From positions 76,322-140,321 of the forward strand of contig JAQURC010000002.1 in the NCBI GenBank assembly GCA_028715785.1: a DNA stretch of 64,000 nt. The letters run 5' to 3'. Within the stretch, counting starts at the first letter, position 1, and the number at the start of each line of letters is the position of its first letter. The position numbers and the translations under genes were made by a program. Below the pieces are notes generated by a model, which saw only the letters and a list, made by a program, of their open reading frames with translations, did not search any database and was not told where the DNA came from. Source of the stretch: Candidatus Omnitrophota bacterium (GTDB taxonomy: Bacteria; Omnitrophota; Gorgyraeia; Gygaellales; Profunditerraquicolaceae). Of this stretch, positions 1,275-63,750 are shown piece after piece.

Positions 1275-1275
1275 A

Positions 1276-1325
1276 CACCCCGCGCTTATAAGGTATTGCG
1301 CGGGTGTGCCCTTGTGGGCTAGGAG
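1276..1325 (+). repeat. intercistronic two-hairpin element, copy 1 of 5, immediately 5' of the pstS RBS and start
   Basis: CACCCCGCGC-TTATAAGGTATT-GCGCGGGTG (about 9-bp stem) + GCCC-TTGT-GGGC (4-bp stem) + AGGAG, 8 nt before the ATG. Near-identical copies at 6765, 46996 and 63701; a covarying copy at 41808. Confidence 0.7.
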
Positions 1326-4148: not shown

Positions 4149-5162
4149 ATGAAATTTAAGACTCACATAAGCGTAAAAAATTTAAGCGTCTGGTATGGCC
4201 GGCATCAGGCGTTGAATAATATCTCCATCGATATCCCGGATAAAAAGATAACCGCGATAATCGGGCCTTCCGGCTGCGGAAAGTCTACTTTGCTTAAGTC
4301 CTTTAACCGTTTGGTCGAGTTGCAGGACGGGGCTAAGGTCGCCGGGGAGGTATTGGTTGATGGAGAAGATATCTATAATCCTAAAGTCGAAGTTACGCAT
4401 TTAAGAAAAAAGATGGGCTTGCTTTCTCAGCGGCCCCAGGTTTTGCCGGCATCTATTTATGAGAATGTGGCTTATGGGTTAAGAATACACGGCATAAAGG
4501 ATAAGAGAAAATTAGATGAAGTTGTGCGGCATTATTTAAAAGAGTCAAATCTTTGGGATGAAGTAAAGGATAGGCTGCATAGTTCCGCTTCGAAATTATC
4601 TATCGGCCAGCAGCAAAGGCTCTGCCTGGCAAGAGGTTTAGCGGTTGAGCCGGAGGTAATCTTGGGGGATGAGCCTACCTCGGCATTAGACCCGCTTTCT
4701 GCGGAATGCATTGAACAACGTTTATTAGAGCTTAAAAATCAATACACCATAGTTTTGGTTACCCATATTTTAAGGCAGGCCAGGCGCCTTGCCGACCACA
4801 TTATTTTTTTGTATTTAGGCAACCTCATTGAGCATGGCCCGGCAGAGGAGGTTTTAAAGAACCCCAGGTATCTAAAAACTAAAAGTTATCTTGAGGGCAA
4901 ATTTATCGAAGAGCCAAAAATCGATAAAGAACTGAATTTAAGAGGGGTCATTTACCCGGATAATTTAATAGCGGCAAAATTGGCATTGGGGGATTTACAA
5001 TTTGGCCAAATATTAAAGATCATCGTTGATTATGAGCAGGCGGCAAGCGAACTTCCCAAAGCAATCGAGCATGAAGGCCACAAGATCCTTGAAGTAACAA
5101 AACTTGACAAAAACGATGGGGCGATAATTGTTCAGAAACATAATGGCGGCTATGTGATATAA
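4149..5162 (+). CDS. pstB: phosphate ABC transporter ATPase PstB with C-terminal Cys-less TusA-like domain
   Basis: Walker A GPSGCGKST, signature LSIGQQQRL, Walker B ILGDEPTSALD. An extra 85 aa follow the PstB core (ELNLRGVIYPDNLIAAKLALGDLQFGQILKIIVDYEQAASELPKAIEHEGHKILEV...) that match the TusA fold pattern, but the CP of the CPxP motif is replaced by YP. RBS AAGAGGTG sits 6 nt before the ATG at 4149. Confidence 0.8.
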   Translation: MKFKTHISVKNLSVWYGRHQALNNISIDIPDKKITAIIGPSGCGKSTLLKSFNRLVELQDGAKVAGEVLVDGEDIYNPKVEVTHLRKKMGLLSQRPQVLPASIYENVAYGLRIHGIKDKRKLDEVVRHYLKESNLWDEVKDRLHSSASKLSIGQQQRLCLARGLAVEPEVILGDEPTSALDPLSAECIEQRLLELKNQYTIVLVTHILRQARRLADHIIFLYLGNLIEHGPAEEVLKNPRYLKTKSYLEGKFIEEPKIDKELNLRGVIYPDNLIAAKLALGDLQFGQILKIIVDYEQAASELPKAIEHEGHKILEVTKLDKNDGAIIVQKHNGGYVI

Positions 5163-5210
5163 TCAGATAAGAGAGAGTATAATATTTTAGGCTAAAAGAG
5201 AGGCTCAAGC

Positions 5211-6176
5211 GTGAATTTTTATCTTATCGGAACAGATTGTCAAAGCGCGGATTTAATTAAACGCGAGCAGATCAGCGCAAGGCGCCGGCAGATCAGCCTT
5301 TACTGGGCAAAGTTTTTTTCTGAAATGGCGGCATTATCTACCTGTAATCGTTTTGAGCTTTATGGAATTGCCGGTGAATCAATAAAATTTCCGCGGATTG
5401 AGGCGGGTTGGTATTTTATAGAGGGCAAGGTAAATGTTTTTGCTCACGCTTTGAGGGTGGCTGTCGGCCTTGAGTCCCGCCTTAAAGGGGAATTACAAAT
5501 TTTAGAGCAGATAAATTCCTGGTCTAATAAGATTCCCGCAAGCTTAGCCGGACTTTGGAACAGGGCTTACTCCGACGCTCTTCTTATACGCGGGGAATCA
5601 GGGCTCAATGGCCGGGATAATATTGCTACTTTTGTATTCGATGACATGAAAAAAAAATTAACCCGGGGAAATGAATTGAGAATTGTGGTAATCGGAACAG
5701 GCAAGATTGCCGGGCTTTTGGCGGAGCACCGGCCTGCTAAGGCGCGTTTAATTTTTGCGGCCCATAAAAATAAATTTGCCGCCGAAAAACTGGCGGAATC
5801 AGCCCGCGGCGTAACGGTATCTTTAAGTGGCTTAGCTGAAGTTTTAGCTGAAGCGGATTTTTTAGTCAGCGCTACCGCAAGCCCGCATTTTATTCTTAAG
5901 GCGGAAGAATTGGAAAGGATAGCTTGGCGGCGCAAGAGGCCATTGTATATTTATGATTTAGCCGTCCCCAGGGATATCGAGCCGGCGGCAGGCCAAATAG
6001 CGGGGATAGTTTTAAAGAACCTTGATGATTTATCTTTTGTTTTCAAAGAGCATAATGATAGAATAAAAAATAATTTGTTTCTGGCGGAATACCTTGTCGG
6101 AGAAAAGATTAAAGAATATGAAAAAAACTTTAAGGTTGGGAGCCCGCCCAAGCCCGCTATCCTTAAAACAGGTTGA
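5211..6176 (+). CDS. hemA: glutamyl-tRNA reductase HemA (short; C-terminal dimerization domain apparently absent)
   Basis: LSTCNRFELYG catalytic-Cys motif and NADPH-binding VIGTGKIAGLLAEH. Only 321 aa versus about 420 canonical. GTG start. Confidence 0.65.
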   Translation: MNFYLIGTDCQSADLIKREQISARRRQISLYWAKFFSEMAALSTCNRFELYGIAGESIKFPRIEAGWYFIEGKVNVFAHALRVAVGLESRLKGELQILEQINSWSNKIPASLAGLWNRAYSDALLIRGESGLNGRDNIATFVFDDMKKKLTRGNELRIVVIGTGKIAGLLAEHRPAKARLIFAAHKNKFAAEKLAESARGVTVSLSGLAEVLAEADFLVSATASPHFILKAEELERIAWRRKRPLYIYDLAVPRDIEPAAGQIAGIVLKNLDDLSFVFKEHNDRIKNNLFLAEYLVGEKIKEYEKNFKVGSPPKPAILKTG

Positions 6177-6831
6177 TGAAATAAAGGATATTTTCCCCTT
6201 TATTGATTTTGAGGTTCTTACTTATCAAACGCAGGGGGATAGGGATAAACATACGCCTTTTACGGGCTTGGAAGGCAGTGATTTTTTTACCCGCCGGCTT
6301 GAAGAGGCGTTGTTAAAAAACGAGATAGATGTTGCGGTGCATAGCGCTAAAGATTTAGAAGAAAATCCGCCTTCCGGATTAACAATTGCCGCGATCACCG
6401 CCTCCATAAGCCCTTATGAATGCCTGGTTTCTTGCGGCAATAAACTTTTGGGGGCGCTTAAGCCGGGCAGCAAGGTTGCTACCAGCAGCTCCAAACGCAA
6501 AAACGCGCTTTTACGCTATCGCAGCGATCTTGAAATATGCGATGTGCGCGGCAATATCGAAGAACGTTTATATCAGTTGGATGCGGGGAAGTTTGACGCT
6601 CTCATTGTGGCGCATGCGGCCCTGATTAGGCTTGGGCTTGAAAATAGGATCGCGGAAATTATCCCTGATTGGATTATTCCCGCGCACCCTTTGCAAGGGT
6701 CTTTAGCCCTGCAGGTGCGCAGTGATAATCAAGGTTTAATAGATCTATTCAGTGTAGTAAGCAACACCCCGCGCTTAAAGGAATTGCGCGGGTGCGCCCT
6801 TGCGGGCAAGGAGAAAAAGAATGCGGATTAA
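6118..6831 (+). CDS. hemC: porphobilinogen deaminase HemC (short; most of domain 3 missing)
   Basis: MKKTLRLGARPSPLSLKQ N-terminus with HSAKDL and ALIVAHAALIRLGLE motifs. About 237 aa versus about 310. The last ~20 codons are encoded by repeat-element copy 2. Overlaps the hemA 3' end by about 59 nt in another frame. Confidence 0.65.
   Translation: MKKTLRLGARPSPLSLKQVDEIKDIFPFIDFEVLTYQTQGDRDKHTPFTGLEGSDFFTRRLEEALLKNEIDVAVHSAKDLEENPPSGLTIAAITASISPYECLVSCGNKLLGALKPGSKVATSSSKRKNALLRYRSDLEICDVRGNIEERLYQLDAGKFDALIVAHAALIRLGLENRIAEIIPDWIIPAHPLQGSLALQVRSDNQGLIDLFSVVSNTPRLKELRGCALAGKEKKNAD
6765..6813 (+). repeat. intercistronic two-hairpin element, copy 2 (overlaps hemC 3' codons; 5' of thiS-metY start)
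   Basis: CACCCCGCGC-TTAAAGGAATT-GCGCGGGTG + GCCC-TTGC-GGGC + AAGGAG, then ATG at 6821. Confidence 0.7.
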
Positions 6832-28112: not shown

Positions 28113-29042
28113 ATGGGCAGAATTTATGAAGATATCACCAAGACAATCGGCAATACCCCGCTTGTGCGCTTAAACAGAGTTGCCAAAGGAATTGGGGCAA
28201 CGGTGTTGGCAAAGTTAGAATTCTTTAATCCGCTTTCAAGCGTCAAAGATAGGATAGGTGTGTCAATGATTGAAACAGCTGAAAAAGACGGGCTGCTGAA
28301 GAAAGATACGATTATAGTCGAACCGACAAGCGGAAACACGGGAATCGCCTTGGCGTTTGTTGCTGCGGCAAAAGGGTATAAATTGATTCTGACTATGCCG
28401 GAGACTATGAGTATAGAAAGAAGGCAGTTACTTTCACTTTTCGGCGCGGAGCTTGTGCTTACTCCGGGAACAGAAGGCATGACCGGAGCAGTTAAAAAGG
28501 CGGAGGAGATTACGAAGAATACGCCGAATTCTTTTATGCCCCAGCAATTTAAGAATCCGGCAAATCCGGAAATCCATAGAAAGACTACCGCTGAAGAAAT
28601 TTGGAAAGACACGGATGGTAAGGTAGATATCTTGATTTCAGGTGTCGGCACAGGCGGGACCATTACCGGCGTAGCAGAGGTGATAAAAAAGCGAAAGCCG
28701 GAATTTAAGGCTATTGCCGTAGAGCCCGTTGATTCGCCTGTGCTTTCAGGAGGAATGGCTGGAGCACATAAGATTCAGGGGATAGGTGCGGGGTTTATAC
28801 CGGAAATTTTAAATACCGGGATAATCGATGAGATAGTAAAAGTAAGCAATGATGATGCGGGTGAATTTGCCCGACGGTTAGCTAAAGAAGAAGGGATATT
28901 AGCAGGGATATCAAGCGGCGCTGCTACCTGGGCAGCTTTGGAAATAGCAAAGAGGCCAGAGAATAAAGGTAAGCTTATTGTTGTTATCTTGCCCGATACA
29001 GGTGAGAGGTATTTGAGCACCTGGATTTTCCAGCAAACATAA
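28113..29042 (+). CDS. cysK: cysteine synthase (O-acetylserine sulfhydrylase) CysK
   Basis: PLP-Lys motif [24 protein letters not shown]. Confidence 0.85.
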
Positions 29043-30253: not shown

Positions 30254-30726
30254 ATGGAAAAAGATAAAAAAGTAGCTAATTCAGTGTTAGATTTAATTGG
30301 CTCTACGCCTATGGTAAAACTAAATAAAGTAGTAGATAAAAAAAGTGCAACCATCTATGCAAAATTAGAATCTTTTAATCCTGGTGGCAGCGTGAAAGAC
30401 AGGATTTGTCTGAGTATGATTGAAGATGCTGAGAAGAAGAGTATATTAAAACCCGGCTCAACTATTGTTGAATCCACAAGCGGCAACACTGGTATCGGTT
30501 TAGCCATCGTTTGCGCTGTGAAATTATTCAGGTTGATAATAATGATGCTCACGCTACTTCAAGGCGTTTAGCCAGGGAGGAGGGTTTATTTGTGGGTATA
30601 TCAGCAGGAGCGGCAACTTGGGCAGCTTTACAGGTAACTCGTCAATTAGGCCGAGGGAAATTAGTGGTTACAATTTTACCTGATACCGGAGAAAGGTATT
30701 TCAGTATGGAACAATATTTTACTTAA
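30254..30726 (+). pseudogene. cysK paralog with internal deletion/frameshift (N- and C-terminal fragments only)
   Basis: The 30254 ORF encodes the CysK N-terminal 90 aa ([13 protein letters not shown]...[12 protein letters not shown]). The 30511 ORF, in another frame, encodes the CysK C-terminal 65 aa ([12 protein letters not shown]...[11 protein letters not shown]). About 150 central residues are missing. Confidence 0.7.
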
Positions 30727-36529: not shown

Positions 36530-36544
36530 GATTATTTAAAATCA

Positions 36545-36601
36545 AGGGGACGGTTCTATTTTTCCGTCGTCCGGATGAGCTAAAAAATAGAACCGTCCCC
36601 C
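36545..36601 (+). terminator. 19-bp perfect-stem hairpin after metY (terminator/attenuator)
   Basis: AGGGGACGGTTCTATTTTT ... AAAAATAGAACCGTCCCCT, followed by TATTT; directly precedes the cysK RBS. Confidence 0.5.
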
Positions 36602-36619
36602 TTATTTCAGGAGGAAGTC

Positions 36620-37555
36620 ATGGGAAAAATATTTTCTGATATTACTAAAACAGTTGGGAATACCCCGTTAGTCAAGCTTAACCGTATCGGAGAAGGTTTG
36701 GGGGTAACCTTGCTGGTTAAATTAGAATCTTTTAATCCGCTCTCCAGCGTAAAAGACAGGATCGGAGTGGCGATGATCGAAGACGCGGAGAAAAGAGGGG
36801 TGCTTAAAAAAAATACCACGATCATTGAGCCGACCAGCGGCAATACGGGGATTGCTTTGGCGTTTGTCGCCGCGGCCAAAGGTTACAAGTTAATTCTGAC
36901 TATGCCCGATACAATGAGCATAGAGAGAAGGCAGCTTTTGGCGATTTTTGGCGCGCAGTTAGTTTTGACTCCGGGGGTAGAAGGGATGAAGGGGGCGGTA
37001 AAAAAAGCCGAGGAATTAGCTAAAGAGACTCCTGATGCGATTATTTTGCAACAGTTTAATAATCCGGCTAATCCGCAGATCCATCGTAAAACTACCGCCG
37101 AAGAGATTTGGGATGATACTGATGGTAAAGTGGATATCCTTGTGTCCGGAGTCGGCACAGGCGGGACAATTACCGGCGTTGCTGAAGTGATCAAAAAAAG
37201 AAAACCAAGCTTTAAGGCGATCGCGGTTGAACCCGATGCTTCGCCGGTTTTATCCGGAGGCACTGCCGGGCCGCATAAGATCCAGGGGATTGGCGCCGGA
37301 TTTATTCCTCAGGTTTTAAACCGCCAGGTTATTGATGAGGTTATCCGGGTGACTAATGAGGATTCCGGAGAAACCGCCCGGCGCCTGGCCAGGCTTGAGG
37401 GAATATTGGCCGGTATTTCCAGCGGAGCGGCATTGTGGGCGGCATTAGAGGTGGCTAAGCGCAAGGAAAATAAAGGGAAAGTCATTGTGGTTGTTCTTCC
37501 CGATACCGGCGAGCGGTATCTAAGCACCTGGCTTTTCCAAGAGGTTAAAGTATGA
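36620..37555 (+). CDS. cysK: cysteine synthase CysK (second copy, about 80% identical to the 28113 gene)
   Basis: Same motifs as the first copy. Confidence 0.85.
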
Positions 37556-41807: not shown

Positions 41808-41858
41808 ACACCCGGCGCTAAGCAGAATTACGCCGGTGCGTGTCTCTACACAGGGAGG
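41808..41858 (+). repeat. intercistronic two-hairpin element, copy 5 (covarying variant)
   Basis: ACACCCGGCGC-TAAGCAGAATTA-CGCCGGTGCGT + GTGT-CTCT-ACAC + AGGGAGG, 8 nt before ATG 41866. Both stems differ in sequence from copies 1-4 yet keep their pairing. Confidence 0.6.
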
Positions 41859-41865
41859 TGACAAA

Positions 41866-43440
41866 ATGCGGAAAATAGTCATTGGTTTTGCCGTGGTTTG
41901 GTTGGGGGCGCTGGCTGGTGTTATTTGGGCCCAGGATCTGAATTGGGATGACCTAAGCAGTGGCAATCATAATGCCCAGGTGATTTTAGTTAACCCAAAC
42001 GATAGCAAAATTATTTTTGCCGGGATGCCGGGGAGCATATTAAAAAGCGAGGATGGCGGCAATAGCTGGCGAACTGTTCTATCCATAAGAAGCGCAGCGC
42101 GCAATATTAATGCTTTAACAATGAATCCTTCAAATCACAATGTCGTTTATGCGGCTGCCGATAATGGCCTATACCGCAGCAATAATTCAGGCGGCCGATG
42201 GGACAGGATATTTAGAGGCAGAAATAATTTAGAGAATCGATGTTTGGCGGTGTTGAATACTCCACTTGCCCTGTTTGCCGGTACCAGCGCCGGACTTTTT
42301 ATAAGCCGGGATAACGGCCGCAGCTGGGATAAGGAAAATAAAATAATCGGCAATACCGCCGTTCTTAACCTTGATTATTGCCATAATCAAAATTCAGTCA
42401 TTTATTTAGCCGCCGCAAGCGGGATATTTAAATCTTCGGATTATGGTAAAAACTGGGAGAGGATTTTTTTGAGTCATCCCGGAGAAGATAATCAGAACGA
42501 ATTTGACGGTGAAGAAGCAGATATTCCGGAGGAGTCATCGGATATCCGTTTTGTAAAGGCAGGTATTAATAACGCAAACCTGGTATATTTTTCATGCGCC
42601 AAAGGAGTTTATCGAAGCTTGGACCAAGGCAGAAGTTGGGATAAATTATCCGAGCATGGTTTGTTAAACCGGGATGTGAAAATGCTTTGTTTATCGGGTA
42701 GCCTTCAGATTTTTGCGCTTAGCCAATCGGGTGTTTTTATTTATGAAGATGGGCGCTGGAGAGAAGTTTCTTTCGGTTTGTCAGCGGGAAAATTAAATTA
42801 TTTTACGTTAGATACTATGGATAATATTTATGTTGCCGCAGAAGGGGGAATATTTAAGGCCAAGCAAGATAGCCAGGCAGTCTTTATCCGGCAGGGTTTA
42901 ATCCAGGAGTATATTAAGGATGAGCCAAAAATAAAAGAGGTACAGGAGGCGGCAATAAAATACGCAGAAGTTGGCCCTGAAAAAATATCTCAATGGAGAA
43001 AGAAAGCGGCAAAAAAAGCGTTATTGCCGCAGGTCAGCGTCGGCCTGGACCGCAACACGACTGACTTATGGCACTGGGAGGGTGGTTCGACTACTAAAAC
43101 CGACGATGATATTCTGCGGCGGGGCAGGGATAACCTGGATTGGGATGTTTCTTTAAGCTGGGATTTAAGCAATTTGATCTGGGATGATGCCCAGACAAGC
43201 ATCGATGTGCGGTCAAAGCTGATGGTGGAGCTGCGCGATGATATTTTAGACCAGGTAAACAAGCTCTATTTTGAGCGCTTGAGGATAAAATCTGAGCTGA
43301 ATAATTTAGCCATTGAAGACAGGAATAAAAGATTCGATAAACAGTTAAAACTTGAGGAGTTAACCGCTTCCCTGGACGCGCTTACATCCGGGTATTACTC
43401 GCAACAACTGCGCAAGTTATCCCCAAAAAAGCAAAGCTAA
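41866..43440 (+). CDS. secreted BNR/Asp-box repeat beta-propeller protein (Ycf48-like) with C-terminal coiled coil
   Basis: Signal peptide; repeated SxDxGxxW motifs (SEDGGNSW, SNNSGGRW, SRDNGRSW, SSDYGKNW, SLDQGRSW). True start at 41866 after GGGAGGTG. Confidence 0.6.
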   Translation: MRKIVIGFAVVWLGALAGVIWAQDLNWDDLSSGNHNAQVILVNPNDSKIIFAGMPGSILKSEDGGNSWRTVLSIRSAARNINALTMNPSNHNVVYAAADNGLYRSNNSGGRWDRIFRGRNNLENRCLAVLNTPLALFAGTSAGLFISRDNGRSWDKENKIIGNTAVLNLDYCHNQNSVIYLAAASGIFKSSDYGKNWERIFLSHPGEDNQNEFDGEEADIPEESSDIRFVKAGINNANLVYFSCAKGVYRSLDQGRSWDKLSEHGLLNRDVKMLCLSGSLQIFALSQSGVFIYEDGRWREVSFGLSAGKLNYFTLDTMDNIYVAAEGGIFKAKQDSQAVFIRQGLIQEYIKDEPKIKEVQEAAIKYAEVGPEKISQWRKKAAKKALLPQVSVGLDRNTTDLWHWEGGSTTKTDDDILRRGRDNLDWDVSLSWDLSNLIWDDAQTSIDVRSKLMVELRDDILDQVNKLYFERLRIKSELNNLAIEDRNKRFDKQLKLEELTASLDALTSGYYSQQLRKLSPKKQS

Positions 43441-45018: not shown

Positions 45019-45948
45019 ATGGATGCTGTCATGAGGATCAGGAAGCTGGCGAAAAGAAAAATCAAAACGATAGTTTTGCCGGAATACGATGACGATCGGA
45101 CGCTTGAGGCCGCCCGGATTATTGAAAAGGAGAAGTTAGCCAAGCCTTTGGTTTTGACTCCGGATATGGTCGATAAGAATGAATTGGAGCGTTACATCGA
45201 GGGGTATTATAAATTATACCAGTCAAAAGATATCGATTTGGACACGGTCAAAAAACTTTTTTCGGATAATCTCTATTATGCGGCGATGATGACCAGAGAA
45301 GGAAAGGCCGACGGCCTGGTTGCCGGAGCAATCCATACTACCGCGGATATGGCCCGCGCCTGTATCCGTTGTATCGGCTTGGAAGAAAGGTTTACCATTG
45401 CTTCAAGTTGTTTTATTATGGATGTGCCCAACTGCCAGTATGGCGATAACGGCACATTTATTTTTGCCGATTGCGGAGTTATCCCCGATCCTAATGCCCG
45501 CCAGCTATCCTGCATTGCTTTAACCGCCGCGGAACTGGCCGCTAAAGTCCTGGATCTTACTCCGCGCGTGGCATTTTTGAGTTATTCCACGAAAGGATCG
45601 GCAAAAACAAAATCTGCCGAAAAAATCAGCCAGGCCCTGGCTTCACTCAGAGAGTTATCGCCGACAATATTAGCTGACGGAGAAATCCAGGCGGACGCGG
45701 CAATTGTCCCGGAAGTTGCCAGGATAAAATGCCCGGACAGCCCGATTAACGGAGAGGCGAACGTGCTGATTTTTCCAAACCTGGAAGCCGGCAATATCAG
45801 CTATAAGCTTGTGCAGCGGCTAAGCGGATGCCGGGCAATCGGGCCGCTATTTTTGGGTTTAAATAAACCGGCAAGTGATTTATCGCGCGGTTGTTTCGTC
45901 GAAGATATCGTTGACAGCGTGGCAGTTACGGCAATCAGGGCGCAATGA
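45019..45948 (+). CDS. pta: phosphate acetyltransferase (catalytic PTA_PTB domain)
   Basis: 309 aa; SYSTKGSAK and GNISYKL motifs. Confidence 0.8.
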   Translation: MDAVMRIRKLAKRKIKTIVLPEYDDDRTLEAARIIEKEKLAKPLVLTPDMVDKNELERYIEGYYKLYQSKDIDLDTVKKLFSDNLYYAAMMTREGKADGLVAGAIHTTADMARACIRCIGLEERFTIASSCFIMDVPNCQYGDNGTFIFADCGVIPDPNARQLSCIALTAAELAAKVLDLTPRVAFLSYSTKGSAKTKSAEKISQALASLRELSPTILADGEIQADAAIVPEVARIKCPDSPINGEANVLIFPNLEAGNISYKLVQRLSGCRAIGPLFLGLNKPASDLSRGCFVEDIVDSVAVTAIRAQ

Positions 45949-47009
45949 TGAAGATACTGGTAATTAACAGCGGAAGCTCATCGATTAAATATAAACTTTT
46001 TGATATGCCTTCCCAGCGCCTGATTACAAAAGGATTGATCGATCGTATCGGTGAAGCAGGTTCAAAGTTTAGCAACCATTATTCAGGTTTAAAGGTCATA
46101 CTGGAGAAGATCAAATCGGTGGACGCGGTGGGCCATCGCGTAGTCCACGGAGCGGAAAAATTTAAAAAGCCCACACTGGTTGACCAAAACGTGATTAAGG
46201 GGATTAAAAAATGCTGCGCGATCGCTCCTTTGCATAATCCGGCAAATTTATCGGGTATACTTGCCTGCCAAAAGCTTCTGCCCGGGACAAAACAGGTTGC
46301 GGTTTTTGATACCGCGTTCCACCAGAGCATCCCGGAGCATGCTTATATCTACGGGTTGCCGTATGAGTATTATCAAAGATTAGGTGCCCGAAAATATGGT
46401 TTTCACGGCACCAGCCACGAGTATGTTGCCGCCGAGGCCAGCCGTATTTTAAAGAAACCTCTGAATAAGTTAAAATTGATTACCTGCCACCTGGGCAATG
46501 GCTGCAGTATTACCGCTATTGACAAAGGCAAATCCGTTGATACCAGCATGGGCTTTACTCCTTTAGAGGGCTTGGTTATGGGCACCCGCTGCGGCGATAC
46601 GGACCCGGCCTTAATCATTCATATTATGCGCAAGAAAAAATTGGATACCAAACAAATGGACCGTATTTTGAATAAAGAAAGCGGGTTAAAAGGGATATCC
46701 GGCATCAGCAATGATGTGCGTTTGCTGGAGGAGAAGGTAGGCGCCGGGAACAAGCGGGCCAAACTGGCTTTGGATATATTTGTTTACCGGATCAGGAAAT
46801 ATATCGGCGCCTACCTGTCGGTTTTAGGCGGGCTTGACGCTTTGATATTTACCGCAGGTATCGGCGAGAACCAGGCTGATATCAGGGAGAATATTTGCCG
46901 CGGCTTGTTTGGCTGCTTAGGAAAAAAACCAAAAATCATGATAATCCCTACGAATGAAGAGCTGATGATCGCCCGGCAGACCTTTAAGTTGATAACACGC
47001 CGCGCTTAG
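45945..47009 (+). CDS. ackA: acetate kinase
   Basis: ILVINSGSSSIKYKLFDM, HRVVHG, PTNEELMIARQT. The stop codon lies inside element copy 3. Confidence 0.85.
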   Translation: MMKILVINSGSSSIKYKLFDMPSQRLITKGLIDRIGEAGSKFSNHYSGLKVILEKIKSVDAVGHRVVHGAEKFKKPTLVDQNVIKGIKKCCAIAPLHNPANLSGILACQKLLPGTKQVAVFDTAFHQSIPEHAYIYGLPYEYYQRLGARKYGFHGTSHEYVAAEASRILKKPLNKLKLITCHLGNGCSITAIDKGKSVDTSMGFTPLEGLVMGTRCGDTDPALIIHIMRKKKLDTKQMDRILNKESGLKGISGISNDVRLLEEKVGAGNKRAKLALDIFVYRIRKYIGAYLSVLGGLDALIFTAGIGENQADIRENICRGLFGCLGKKPKIMIIPTNEELMIARQTFKLITRRA

Positions 47010-47064
47010 CGGAATTGCGCGCCTGCCTGCCGGCAGGCAGGGGTGTGCCCTTCTGGGCAAGGAG
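46996..47064 (+). repeat. intercistronic two-hairpin element, copy 3 (with nested 20-bp palindrome insertion)
   Basis: CACGCCGCGC-TTAGCGGAATT-GCGCG [CCTGCCTGCC|GGCAGGCAGG] GGTG + GCCC-TTCT-GGGC + AAGGAG, then ATG of panD at 47073. Confidence 0.65.
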
Positions 47065-63172: not shown

Positions 63173-63700
63173 ATGGAAGAGCCTGAAAAGAAATCCGCCT
63201 CCGGCGGAAAGGAAGAAAAAACAGTTACCCTGAAAGAAGCGGAATATTTGGCGCTTTTGGAAGAGGTCAAAAAGGGCAAGGACAGCTGGGACAAAATGCT
63301 CCGGAACCAGGCTGACCTGGAAAATACCCGTAAGCGCTTAGACCGGGAAAAACAGGAATTTATAAAATTTGCCAATGAAGGTTTGGTGCTGGACCTGCTC
63401 AATGTGCTCGATGACCTTGAGCGGACGGTTAATTTAGCGGAATCAACCAAACAGGACCTTGCTGCTTTCTTAAAAGGCGTAGAGATGATTCTTGCGCACT
63501 TGTATGAAATGTTAAAAGAGCACGGAGTAAAGCCGATTGAGGCTGAGGGTAAAATATTTGATCCAAATTACCATGAAGCCTTGATGCAGGTTGAAAGCAA
63601 GGATTTACCGGAGCACACGATAATTGAGGTTTTGCAAAAAGGATATTTAATTCACGAGCGGGTACTGCGTACCGCCAAAGTAAAAGTTTCAAAAAAATAA
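63173..63700 (+). CDS. grpE: nucleotide exchange factor GrpE
   Basis: [13 protein letters not shown], then the C-terminal beta-domain. Confidence 0.85.
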
Positions 63701-63750
63701 CACCCCGCGCTTATAATGAATTGCGCGGGTGCGCCCTTGTGGGCAGGGAG
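63701..63750 (+). repeat. intercistronic two-hairpin element, copy 4 (between grpE and dnaK)
   Basis: CACCCCGCGC-TTATAATGAATT-GCGCGGGTG + GCCC-TTGT-GGGC + AGGGAGG, then ATG 63757. Confidence 0.7.

Follow-up and report, generated by a model that had tools for sequence, protein, structure and literature searches.

Directly before the Shine-Dalgarno (SD) sequence of a BNR/sortilin-like gene, the window (the whole stretch of 64,000 nucleotides that was analysed) contains two short hairpins in succession. The initial annotation took them for a diverged copy of an element present elsewhere in the window, in which compensatory base changes had kept both stems paired, and proposed selection on structure, of RNA or cruciform, rather than on sequence. 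What is this element, what keeps its hairpins paired, and why does it stand before ribosome-binding sites (RBS)?

The copy in question, called c3 here, occupies positions 41808-41857 of the + strand and reads ACAC-C-CGGCG(C) [TAAGCAGAATT(A)] CGCCG-GTG c GTGT-CTCT-ACAC AG GGAGG, with an ATG at 41866. There are exactly five same-strand (+) copies in the window, starting at 1275, 6764, 41808, 46995 and 63700. In the unit, a 31-nt hairpin (S1) is followed by a short one (H2) and then by GGAG. The features are the following.

41808..41838, + strand: hairpin S1 of c3, ACAC-C-CGGCG ... CGCCG-GTG, with a 13-nt loop; G-C allele at the variable pair, closing pair C·A, core helix P 0.92; the gene upstream of c3 encodes a radical SAM/BATS protein.
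41840..41851, + strand: hairpin H2 of c3, GTGT-CTCT-ACAC, supported by covariation in the family and not by the minimum free energy (MFE) fold of c3 itself.
41852..41868, + strand: SD sequence AGGGAGG of c3 (GGAG at 41854-41857), directly abutting H2, with an 8-nt spacer and the ATG (41866) of the downstream BNR/sortilin-like gene.
1275..1325, + strand: copy c1 (S1 + H2 + GGAG), right after the TAA of the upstream porin gene and before a PBP_like_2 gene (ATG 1332).
6764..6813, + strand: copy c2, within the 3' end of the upstream HemC ORF (6094-6831, which reads through) and before a ThiS-MetY fusion gene (ATG 6821).
46995..47064, + strand: copy c4, with S1 split by a 20-nt palindrome; the upstream AckA ORF stops at the TAG of the S1 loop, and panD (PanD) is next (ATG 47073).
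47022..47041, + strand: module P, the perfect 20-nt palindrome CCTGCCTGCCGGCAGGCAGG, inserted in the 3' arm of c4 S1.
63700..63750, + strand: copy c5, between grpE (GrpE) and dnaK (DnaK, ATG 63757); the orthologous junction in locus L061 holds one intact and one decayed nested unit.

In two cases the reading frame of the preceding gene extends into the copy. The HemC ORF has no stop codon before c2, is read through the whole element and overlaps the start of the next gene. The AckA ORF (45945-47009) ends within c4, and its Pfam match reaches position 347 of a profile of 392. It seems that the repeats have altered the C-terminal ends of both upstream genes.

The membership of c3 in this family was judged with a covariance model built from homologues in other genomes, with which the whole window was scored with filters off. 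The matches were the same five copies (E 3e-18 to 8e-10), followed by a next best match at E 0.4. As c3 scores 56.9 bits (E 6e-15) and the next match that is not a copy only E 0.4, the similarity of c3 is far beyond chance. The idea that this similarity and the compensatory changes are fortuitous could draw on the shortness of H2, which has only 4 bp, and on the fold z-score of the single c3 sequence (-0.87; those of the single copies are all weak, -0.8 to -2.6). It has against it the score of the covariance model, an exact match to a 22-base pattern common to at least 114 loci, and an identical H2 in locus L066, so that the resemblance is not spurious and its chance origin is practically negligible.

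The changes themselves were described correctly for both stems. Compared with the other copies, S1 of c3 carries a single compensatory pair change, C-G to G-C, and H2 is changed on both sides in three of its four pairs; the pair closing the S1 loop is lost (C·A). The spacing also agrees with the initial annotation, as each of the five window copies has 19 nt from GGTG to GGAG and 6-8 nt from GGAG to the ATG. The statement that the loop consensus is retained does not hold: the S1 loop is only partly conserved across the window copies (T.A....G.ATT), and TAAGCAGAATTA is the loop of c3 itself and not a consensus of the family.

Folding of c3 by RNAfold gives a divided answer to the proposal that both hairpins form. 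The core of S1 forms with P 0.92, and H2 has P 0.003; the state with two hairpins lies at -13.1 kcal/mol, compared with -20.5 for the MFE. H2 is disfavoured by an alternative pairing, that of the 5' flank AGACAC with GUGUCU. The support for H2 of c3 is therefore the covariation over 70-133 homologues and not the thermodynamics of c3.

This covariation is strong. In an alignment of 70 sequences from other genomes, standard pairs are found in 98.1% of cells, as compared with 86.8% in shuffles and 26-59% when the partners are slid, and the covariation score is 0.313 against 0.114 in shuffles. Double changes occur in five of the six H2 pairs and in one S1 pair, the free one, which is CG in 39 sequences and GC in 28. 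RNAalifold independently predicts the same two hairpins. H2 was absent from the search pattern, and a hairpin of at least 5 bp nevertheless follows S1 directly in 104 of 118 listed copies (13% at random control positions), with 86 distinct H2 sequences among them.

S1 behaves differently. Here it is the sequence that is conserved across the phylum, in the stem, in the bulged C and in part of the loop, with the consensus ACAC.C.GCGCT.A...G.ATT.CGC.GGTG and the bulged C always on the 5' arm, part of this conservation being imposed by the search pattern. Matches of the model outside the pattern keep the CAC-C...GTG frame and have compensated stems, for example CCAGCC/GGCTGG and CGGCC/GGCCG. The idea of selection on structure rather than sequence is thus half right: pairing is kept under sequence change, but S1 is conserved in its sequence too. 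Such conservation throughout a phylum calls for a conserved partner.

The homologues come from a scan with a degenerate S1 pattern of 22 bases, in which H2 was left free and one genome per GTDB species was covered; the loci are 8-kb pieces selected by this pattern, and their gene calls are crude. The further copies that the initial annotation had suggested searching for were found outside the window in at least 114 loci, from at least 44 assemblies. The density is five copies in the 64 kb of the window, and single MAGs have up to at least nine loci. The matches listed are all labelled Omnitrophota/Omnitrophica or 'uncultured Planctomycetales' (TPA MAGs), and they include the complete genome of Ca. 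Velamenicoccus archaeovorus. The Planctomycetales label is taken as wrong, since several such loci align with Omnitrophota (L039 with L038; L005 with L016 and L019). The pattern scan found no copies in viral contigs (IMG/VR). Rfam 15 had no match in the window at the gathering score, and the elements of L021, L030, L041 and L080 matched no family even at E up to 1. In the Omnitrophota literature, genome papers included, nothing resembling a two-hairpin repeat was found under the topics of repeats, hairpins and RNA motifs.

With the family at hand, the origin of the differences in c3 can be described. Among the matches listed, the S1 allele of the c3 type (CGGCGC/GCGCCG) makes up about 40% of copies phylum-wide, and both S1 alleles and several H2 types coexist in single genomes in all combinations. 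The combination seen in c3, the GC allele with a GTGT-type H2, occurs at least 14 times elsewhere, and the H2 stem and loop of c3 (TGTGT-CTCT-ACACA) recur identically in the other genome represented by L066. As the allele and the H2 are both common elsewhere, c3 belongs to a second subfamily and has not drifted in place. It is a genuine family member, as the initial annotation had it, and what looked like divergence is a second S1 allele together with a common H2 type. Its 'compensatory changes' would be the differences between coexisting subfamilies of a palindromic repeat.

The next point is the nucleic acid in which the pairing matters. When a constraint acts on one RNA strand, G·U is expected to be tolerated far above A·C. 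The mismatch tally over the 1920 paired cells of the 133-sequence model alignment is G·U 25, A·C 18 and other 13, and in H2 alone G·U and A·C both number 11. The near-symmetry of G·U and A·C, the Watson-Crick pairing of 97% in the same alignment, and the antisense, nested and intragenic copies described below argue for a constraint that is DNA-level or strand-indifferent rather than RNA-specific. Of the two levels that had been proposed, RNA or cruciform, nothing favours RNA over DNA.

The position of the element with respect to genes can be read in another way. It is possible, though somewhat unlikely, that the unit is a cis-acting mRNA module of the host, a 'ribosome-binding-site cassette', selected for its structure at the RNA level and spread by duplication. 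Such a module might guard the 5' end of a primary or processed transcript, keep the SD apart from the coding sequence before it, or offer its S1 loop and bulge to a conserved RNA-binding protein or RNase specific to the phylum. The coupling to the SD speaks for it. GGAG or GAGG and then a start codon lie 22-31 nt past S1 (mode 27) in 73 of 118 listed copies (62%), the bases after H2 are (A)GGAG in about 64 of 114 listed copies, the GGTG-GGAG distance is exactly 19 nt in the five window copies, and the SD is unpaired in the predicted folds. The upstream stop codon lies at anything between -1 and 49 nt from the element, which is therefore tied to the SD and not just confined to a short spacer. 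About 80% of the listed copies are sense to their neighbours. Many downstream genes are of highly expressed kinds (L20 three times, S6, S16, L35, L25, L31, GroES, GroEL, DnaK, ACP, SSB, DnaN and Ndk). Distant genomes share occupied junctions (rplT three times; dnaK, dnaN, parB and rpsF twice each), in part at identities of only about 70%. The strong covariation and the phylum-wide conservation of the S1 sequence can be added to this list.

Several observations do not agree with an mRNA module. G·U shows no excess over A·C; copies are nested, tandem, decayed, antisense or in frame within genes, and turn over frequently between close relatives. The downstream genes have no common function, as their products are as different as ribosomal proteins, chaperones, lipoproteins, PanD, CysK and BNR. 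H2 of c3 is thermodynamically disfavoured, and there is no Rfam family. As to the sense bias, gene strand and replication strand are inseparable, because 108 of the 115 sequences (114 loci and the window) are essentially unidirectional. The remaining 7 of 115 have genes on both strands, and the sign of their GC skew is inconsistent. In the window itself, 62 of 63 called genes lie on the + strand and the coding-strand GC skew is about +0.13. An mRNA module and a selfish origin are not mutually exclusive, and both can hold.

Comparison of orthologous junctions, in which left and right flanks were aligned separately, shows the turnover directly. The parA-parB junction is empty in L073 (gcaaAAGGAGcga) and filled in L008 and L096 (...AAG[ACAC...AGACA]AGGAG...). 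Upstream of ndk, L096 has no unit, L008 has one and L073 has two in tandem, with flanks 80-93% identical. Upstream of rpsF, L012 and L037 are filled and L060 and L114 are empty, and L036 is filled at a site where L011 and L064 are empty. At one junction with flanks 94-97% identical, L011 has a single unit, L036 has a second unit exactly in the S1 loop, and L064 is multiply nested and tandem. Another junction holds a sense copy in L027 and an antisense copy in L084. L015 has one unit where L020 has two, each split by the 20-nt palindrome of module P; the grpE-dnaK junction of L061 has its decayed nested unit in addition; and the metY-cysK junction has the element in L067 but not in the window. 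A crude synteny mapping of 97 sites scored 55 as present and 42 as absent, some of the 'absent' ones being artefactual. Units appear and disappear between related genomes, which may reflect gain or precise loss.

Could this turnover arise without an enzyme, by replication slippage or template switching at the hairpins and at microhomologies (AAG/ACAC), with gene conversion to homogenise the copies and correction within the palindrome to produce the compensatory changes? Half-unit tandem duplications exist (GCACCCCGCCGCTTAAAAG is present twice in L064), one junction can hold different numbers of copies, and the stems are near-perfect in Watson-Crick pairing. ACAC/AGACA is common to the start of S1 and to H2 in its 3' arm, and a deletion between such repeats would fit two of the empty sites, ACACAAGGAG and ACGCAAGGAG. 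The direct repeats are missing at five of the seven empty sites, however, and slippage cannot put one 47-nt unit at unrelated loci or inside hydG and lnt. It also leaves the single conserved S1 sequence in at least 44 species unexplained. An origin of this kind is very improbable.

The sites of insertion share a common sequence. The junctions always lie, in one polarity, at the 5' edge of purine runs resembling (A)GGAG or GGAAT, and empty sites read CAAG|GAGC or similar. Four kinds of insertion motif are found: 1) the SD of a gene; 2) in nested copies, the loop of another S1, which is similar to AAGGAATT; 3) in tandem copies, the AAG at the end of the unit before; 4) a coding GGGAGAA. The S1 loop (AAGGAATT) itself resembles an SD, and nested copies lie between G and AATT of the loop in L030, L036, L041, L054, L065, L080 and L083. 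Inside a HydG homologue an in-frame copy adds 15 residues with respect to PDB 4wcx_A (E 3.9e-131), the pre-insertion sequence being GGGA|GAAAG; an antisense copy is in frame inside an Lnt-like ORF. The commonest bases 5' of S1 in 119 listed copies are AAG (27), TAG (12) and ATA (11). AG is found on both flanks in about 40% of listed copies. A fixed target-site duplication was considered and is not supported, as AG or TA flanks c1 and c3 at either end but does not do so for c4, for c5 or for the family overall; a duplication of AG or AAG may nevertheless exist. Among the matches listed, inverted pairs are rare (L016, L019) and arrays are mostly direct or nested. One tandem array of S1 and a 15-nt H2, in L018 from 821-877 onward, runs into a block of N, which suggests that the repeats break or confound short-read assemblies.

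The reading that we prefer, with a probability of roughly 0.55, is that the family is a mobile mini-palindrome similar to REP, PATE and MITE elements, which is inserted in a single polarity at SD-like purine motifs without damage to the RBS. The process could be pictured as follows. The unit of about 47 nt would be a non-autonomous mobile DNA repeat, or at least one that is rapidly gained, lost and amplified. S1, with its conserved sequence, bulged C and conserved loop, would be the recognition hairpin; H2 is a short hairpin conserved in structure only. The units lie directly 5' of GGAG-type motifs, and the RBS and its spacing to the ATG remain untouched. As both are left intact, insertions are tolerated even before ribosomal-protein and chaperone genes. 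The hairpins would be kept because the propagation machinery needs them. The most plausible machinery might be an enzyme of the HUH/Y1 type acting on single-stranded DNA, and its transposition onto the sense strand would correspond to the lagging-strand template for co-oriented genes. Perfect local hairpins may also be harmless in mRNA, and correction within the palindrome could itself produce paired changes. A tblastn search with IS200/IS608 TnpA queries gave no match at E<0.5 in 890 kb; this sample, taken from at least 44 genomes, amounts to less than half of a single genome and is too small to carry weight.

The mobile reading has its own difficulties. Neither a transposase nor another mobilising enzyme was found. 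S1 is conserved over the whole phylum, unlike the REPs, which are specific to a species or genus, and a conserved host partner, protein or RNA, fits this equally well. The recurrent junctions and the many highly expressed downstream genes fit function and selection as well as they fit targeting of strong SDs. That about 80% of listed copies are sense and 62% are exactly coupled to an SD also stands against it. Secondary effects on the mRNA, such as a 5' hairpin or the insulation of cistrons, are likely but unproven.

A bolder combination of the two ideas, which we regard as unlikely, would make the family a class of mini-elements that integrate at SD-like motifs, rebuild the RBS, are moved by a conserved, vertically inherited enzyme and have been co-opted before highly expressed genes. 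It would then be mobile DNA and at the same time a phylum-wide signal for translation or mRNA stability, and P, Q and the GGGGACGGTTC repeat would share its insertion logic.

Other small repeats are found at the same kinds of sites. The core of module P (18 nt searched, with flanking bases) occurs in seven other Omnitrophota loci: L020, L035, L079, L080, L091, L095 and L097. In Ca. V. archaeovorus (L080) its position is identical to that in c4, in L020 it lies within H2, and in L095 it lies directly before the SD. P looks like a second tiny mobile module. At 36544-36611 of the window, an inverted repeat GGGGACGGTTCTATTTTT ... AAAAATAGAACCGTCCCC with a 20-bp stem is followed by a T-rich stretch and AGGAGG. 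This repeat is phylum-wide, being present in 12 loci as well (e.g. L002, L021, L045 and L107), and in the window it holds the metY-cysK junction, where L067 has S1 and H2. This could represent a conserved terminator, or else a further family of repeats.

A repeat TTCCCCCTCGCGGGAGCTCGGGGTCATTTTTCCCCAAG...GGGGAAAAATGAGGAG is present on the minus strand of L032 (5500-5590) and L048 (6440-6600). In L032 it sits between the S1/H2 unit and the SD, its end also recreates GGAG, and it is missing in the close relative L056. On the minus strand of L012 at about 5090-5190, upstream of ssb, there is an inverted repeat GTCATCCTGAGCGTAGCGAAGGATC ... GGCCTCAGAATGAC where L060 has S1 and H2; it presumably resembles repeats of many MAGs of uncultured bacteria. 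The window also contains paralogous cysteine-synthase-like genes with neighbouring segments (28113-29042, 30254-30571 and 36620-37555), which form direct repeats 72-77% identical (families D1, D4, D6, D10 and D11). To judge from the sequence, this indicates a duplicated gene cluster for sulfur amino acids.

If the mobile reading is true, one palindromic unit of about 47 nt has kept its sequence across a deeply branching, uncultured phylum while moving between stop codons and ribosome-binding sites, and such retention throughout a phylum would be unusual for REP-like repeats. The family would then be a tractable case for asking what propagates REP-like mini-palindromes, and whether such a repeat is a parasite, a commensal or a co-opted expression signal. 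In practical terms, the elements lengthen or shorten annotated ORFs (HemC, AckA, HydG and Lnt) and create assembly breaks, as at the N run of L018. They could also serve to mark Omnitrophota contigs in metagenomes.

Some familiar identities do not fit the element. It is not a classical MITE, as its two ends, ACAC... and ...ACAA, do not form an inverted repeat with each other and each hairpin is closed in itself. An integron attC site is rejected because GTTRRRY is missing and because five of about 62 window junctions are occupied, the housekeeping junction grpE-dnaK among them. An intrinsic terminator would end in a T run, and each of the five window copies has AGGAG after H2. About one third of the loops, including those of c3 and c5, have GGT, TGA or AGA in place of the GGA that a two-site CsrA leader (GGA in the loop and in the SD) would present. 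For a sigma-54 or sigma-70 promoter the spacing and the hexamers misfit. A cis-regulatory RNA of the Rfam type would agree with the covariation, but there is no curated family, no excess of G·U, and no single gene family or pathway downstream.

Palindromic repeats have been the subject of reviews (PMC2229807, PMC3184786). Among the closest for our purpose are the REP, BIME and REPIN sequences of Enterobacteria and Pseudomonas with their RAYT transposases (PMC3116915, PMC2817692, PMC3733652), in which REPs carry a conserved GTAG or CGTC tetranucleotide at one end (PMC3733652). The Omnitrophota element resembles REPs in being a short, GC-rich, imperfect palindrome with many copies per genome, single or clustered in transcribed intergenic space, in keeping its pairing under sequence variation, and in differing in presence between relatives. 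It differs in having no GTAG/CGTC tag (GTAG lies 5' of S1 in 5 of 119 listed copies) and in being placed mostly at the 5' edge of an SD, whereas REPs are strictly extragenic and typically downstream, at 3' ends of genes. It consists of two unlike hairpins, whereas a REPIN is an inverted doublet of REPs; it is conserved across a phylum and not within a species or genus; and two of its copies are in frame inside genes. Membership in REP/RAYT is rejected on these grounds: the short, GC-rich, multi-copy palindrome is shared, and the tag, the 3'-extragenic placement, the doublet and the species-specificity are not.

PATEs of the IS200/IS605 group, and IS608 with its HUH transposition, have hairpins at their ends, lack terminal inverted repeats and use a defined tetranucleotide as target. 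The element likewise has hairpins at or near both ends, no terminal inverted repeats and an apparently fixed polarity beside a short motif, and its junctions are compatible with seamless integration and excision. Unlike PATEs, it is only about 47 nt long, its target is purine-rich and SD-like instead of a defined tetranucleotide, and no parent element or TnpA has been seen. Very small nested repeats of cyanobacteria, inserting into one another and into hairpins and having no known enzyme, are said to have been described by Elhai et al. in 2008. They are similarly tiny, mutually nesting and arranged in mosaics, but have another sequence and another host phylum, and to our knowledge are not coupled to ribosome-binding sites.

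The RPE of Rickettsia, ERIC/IRU and the Correia elements of Neisseria are genus-specific elements of 100-150 nt, with inverted repeats at their ends and with duplications, of TA or others. RPE share with the element the in-frame position of a palindromic repeat inside ORFs, and ERIC and Correia elements share co-transcription with flanking genes and the ability to alter the fate of mRNA; none of them adjoins an SD at a fixed 0-1 nt. The 5' hairpin of ompA and the RNase III sites of phage T7 likewise place a stable hairpin close before an accessible SD and recur between cistrons, but these stabilising or processing hairpins are not dispersed, nested or mobile, and their sequence is unrelated. 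In its behaviour the Omnitrophota element resembles a REP or mini-MITE. We know of no described counterpart to its fixed contact with the SD, to its nesting within its own SD-like loop and to its conservation throughout a phylum.
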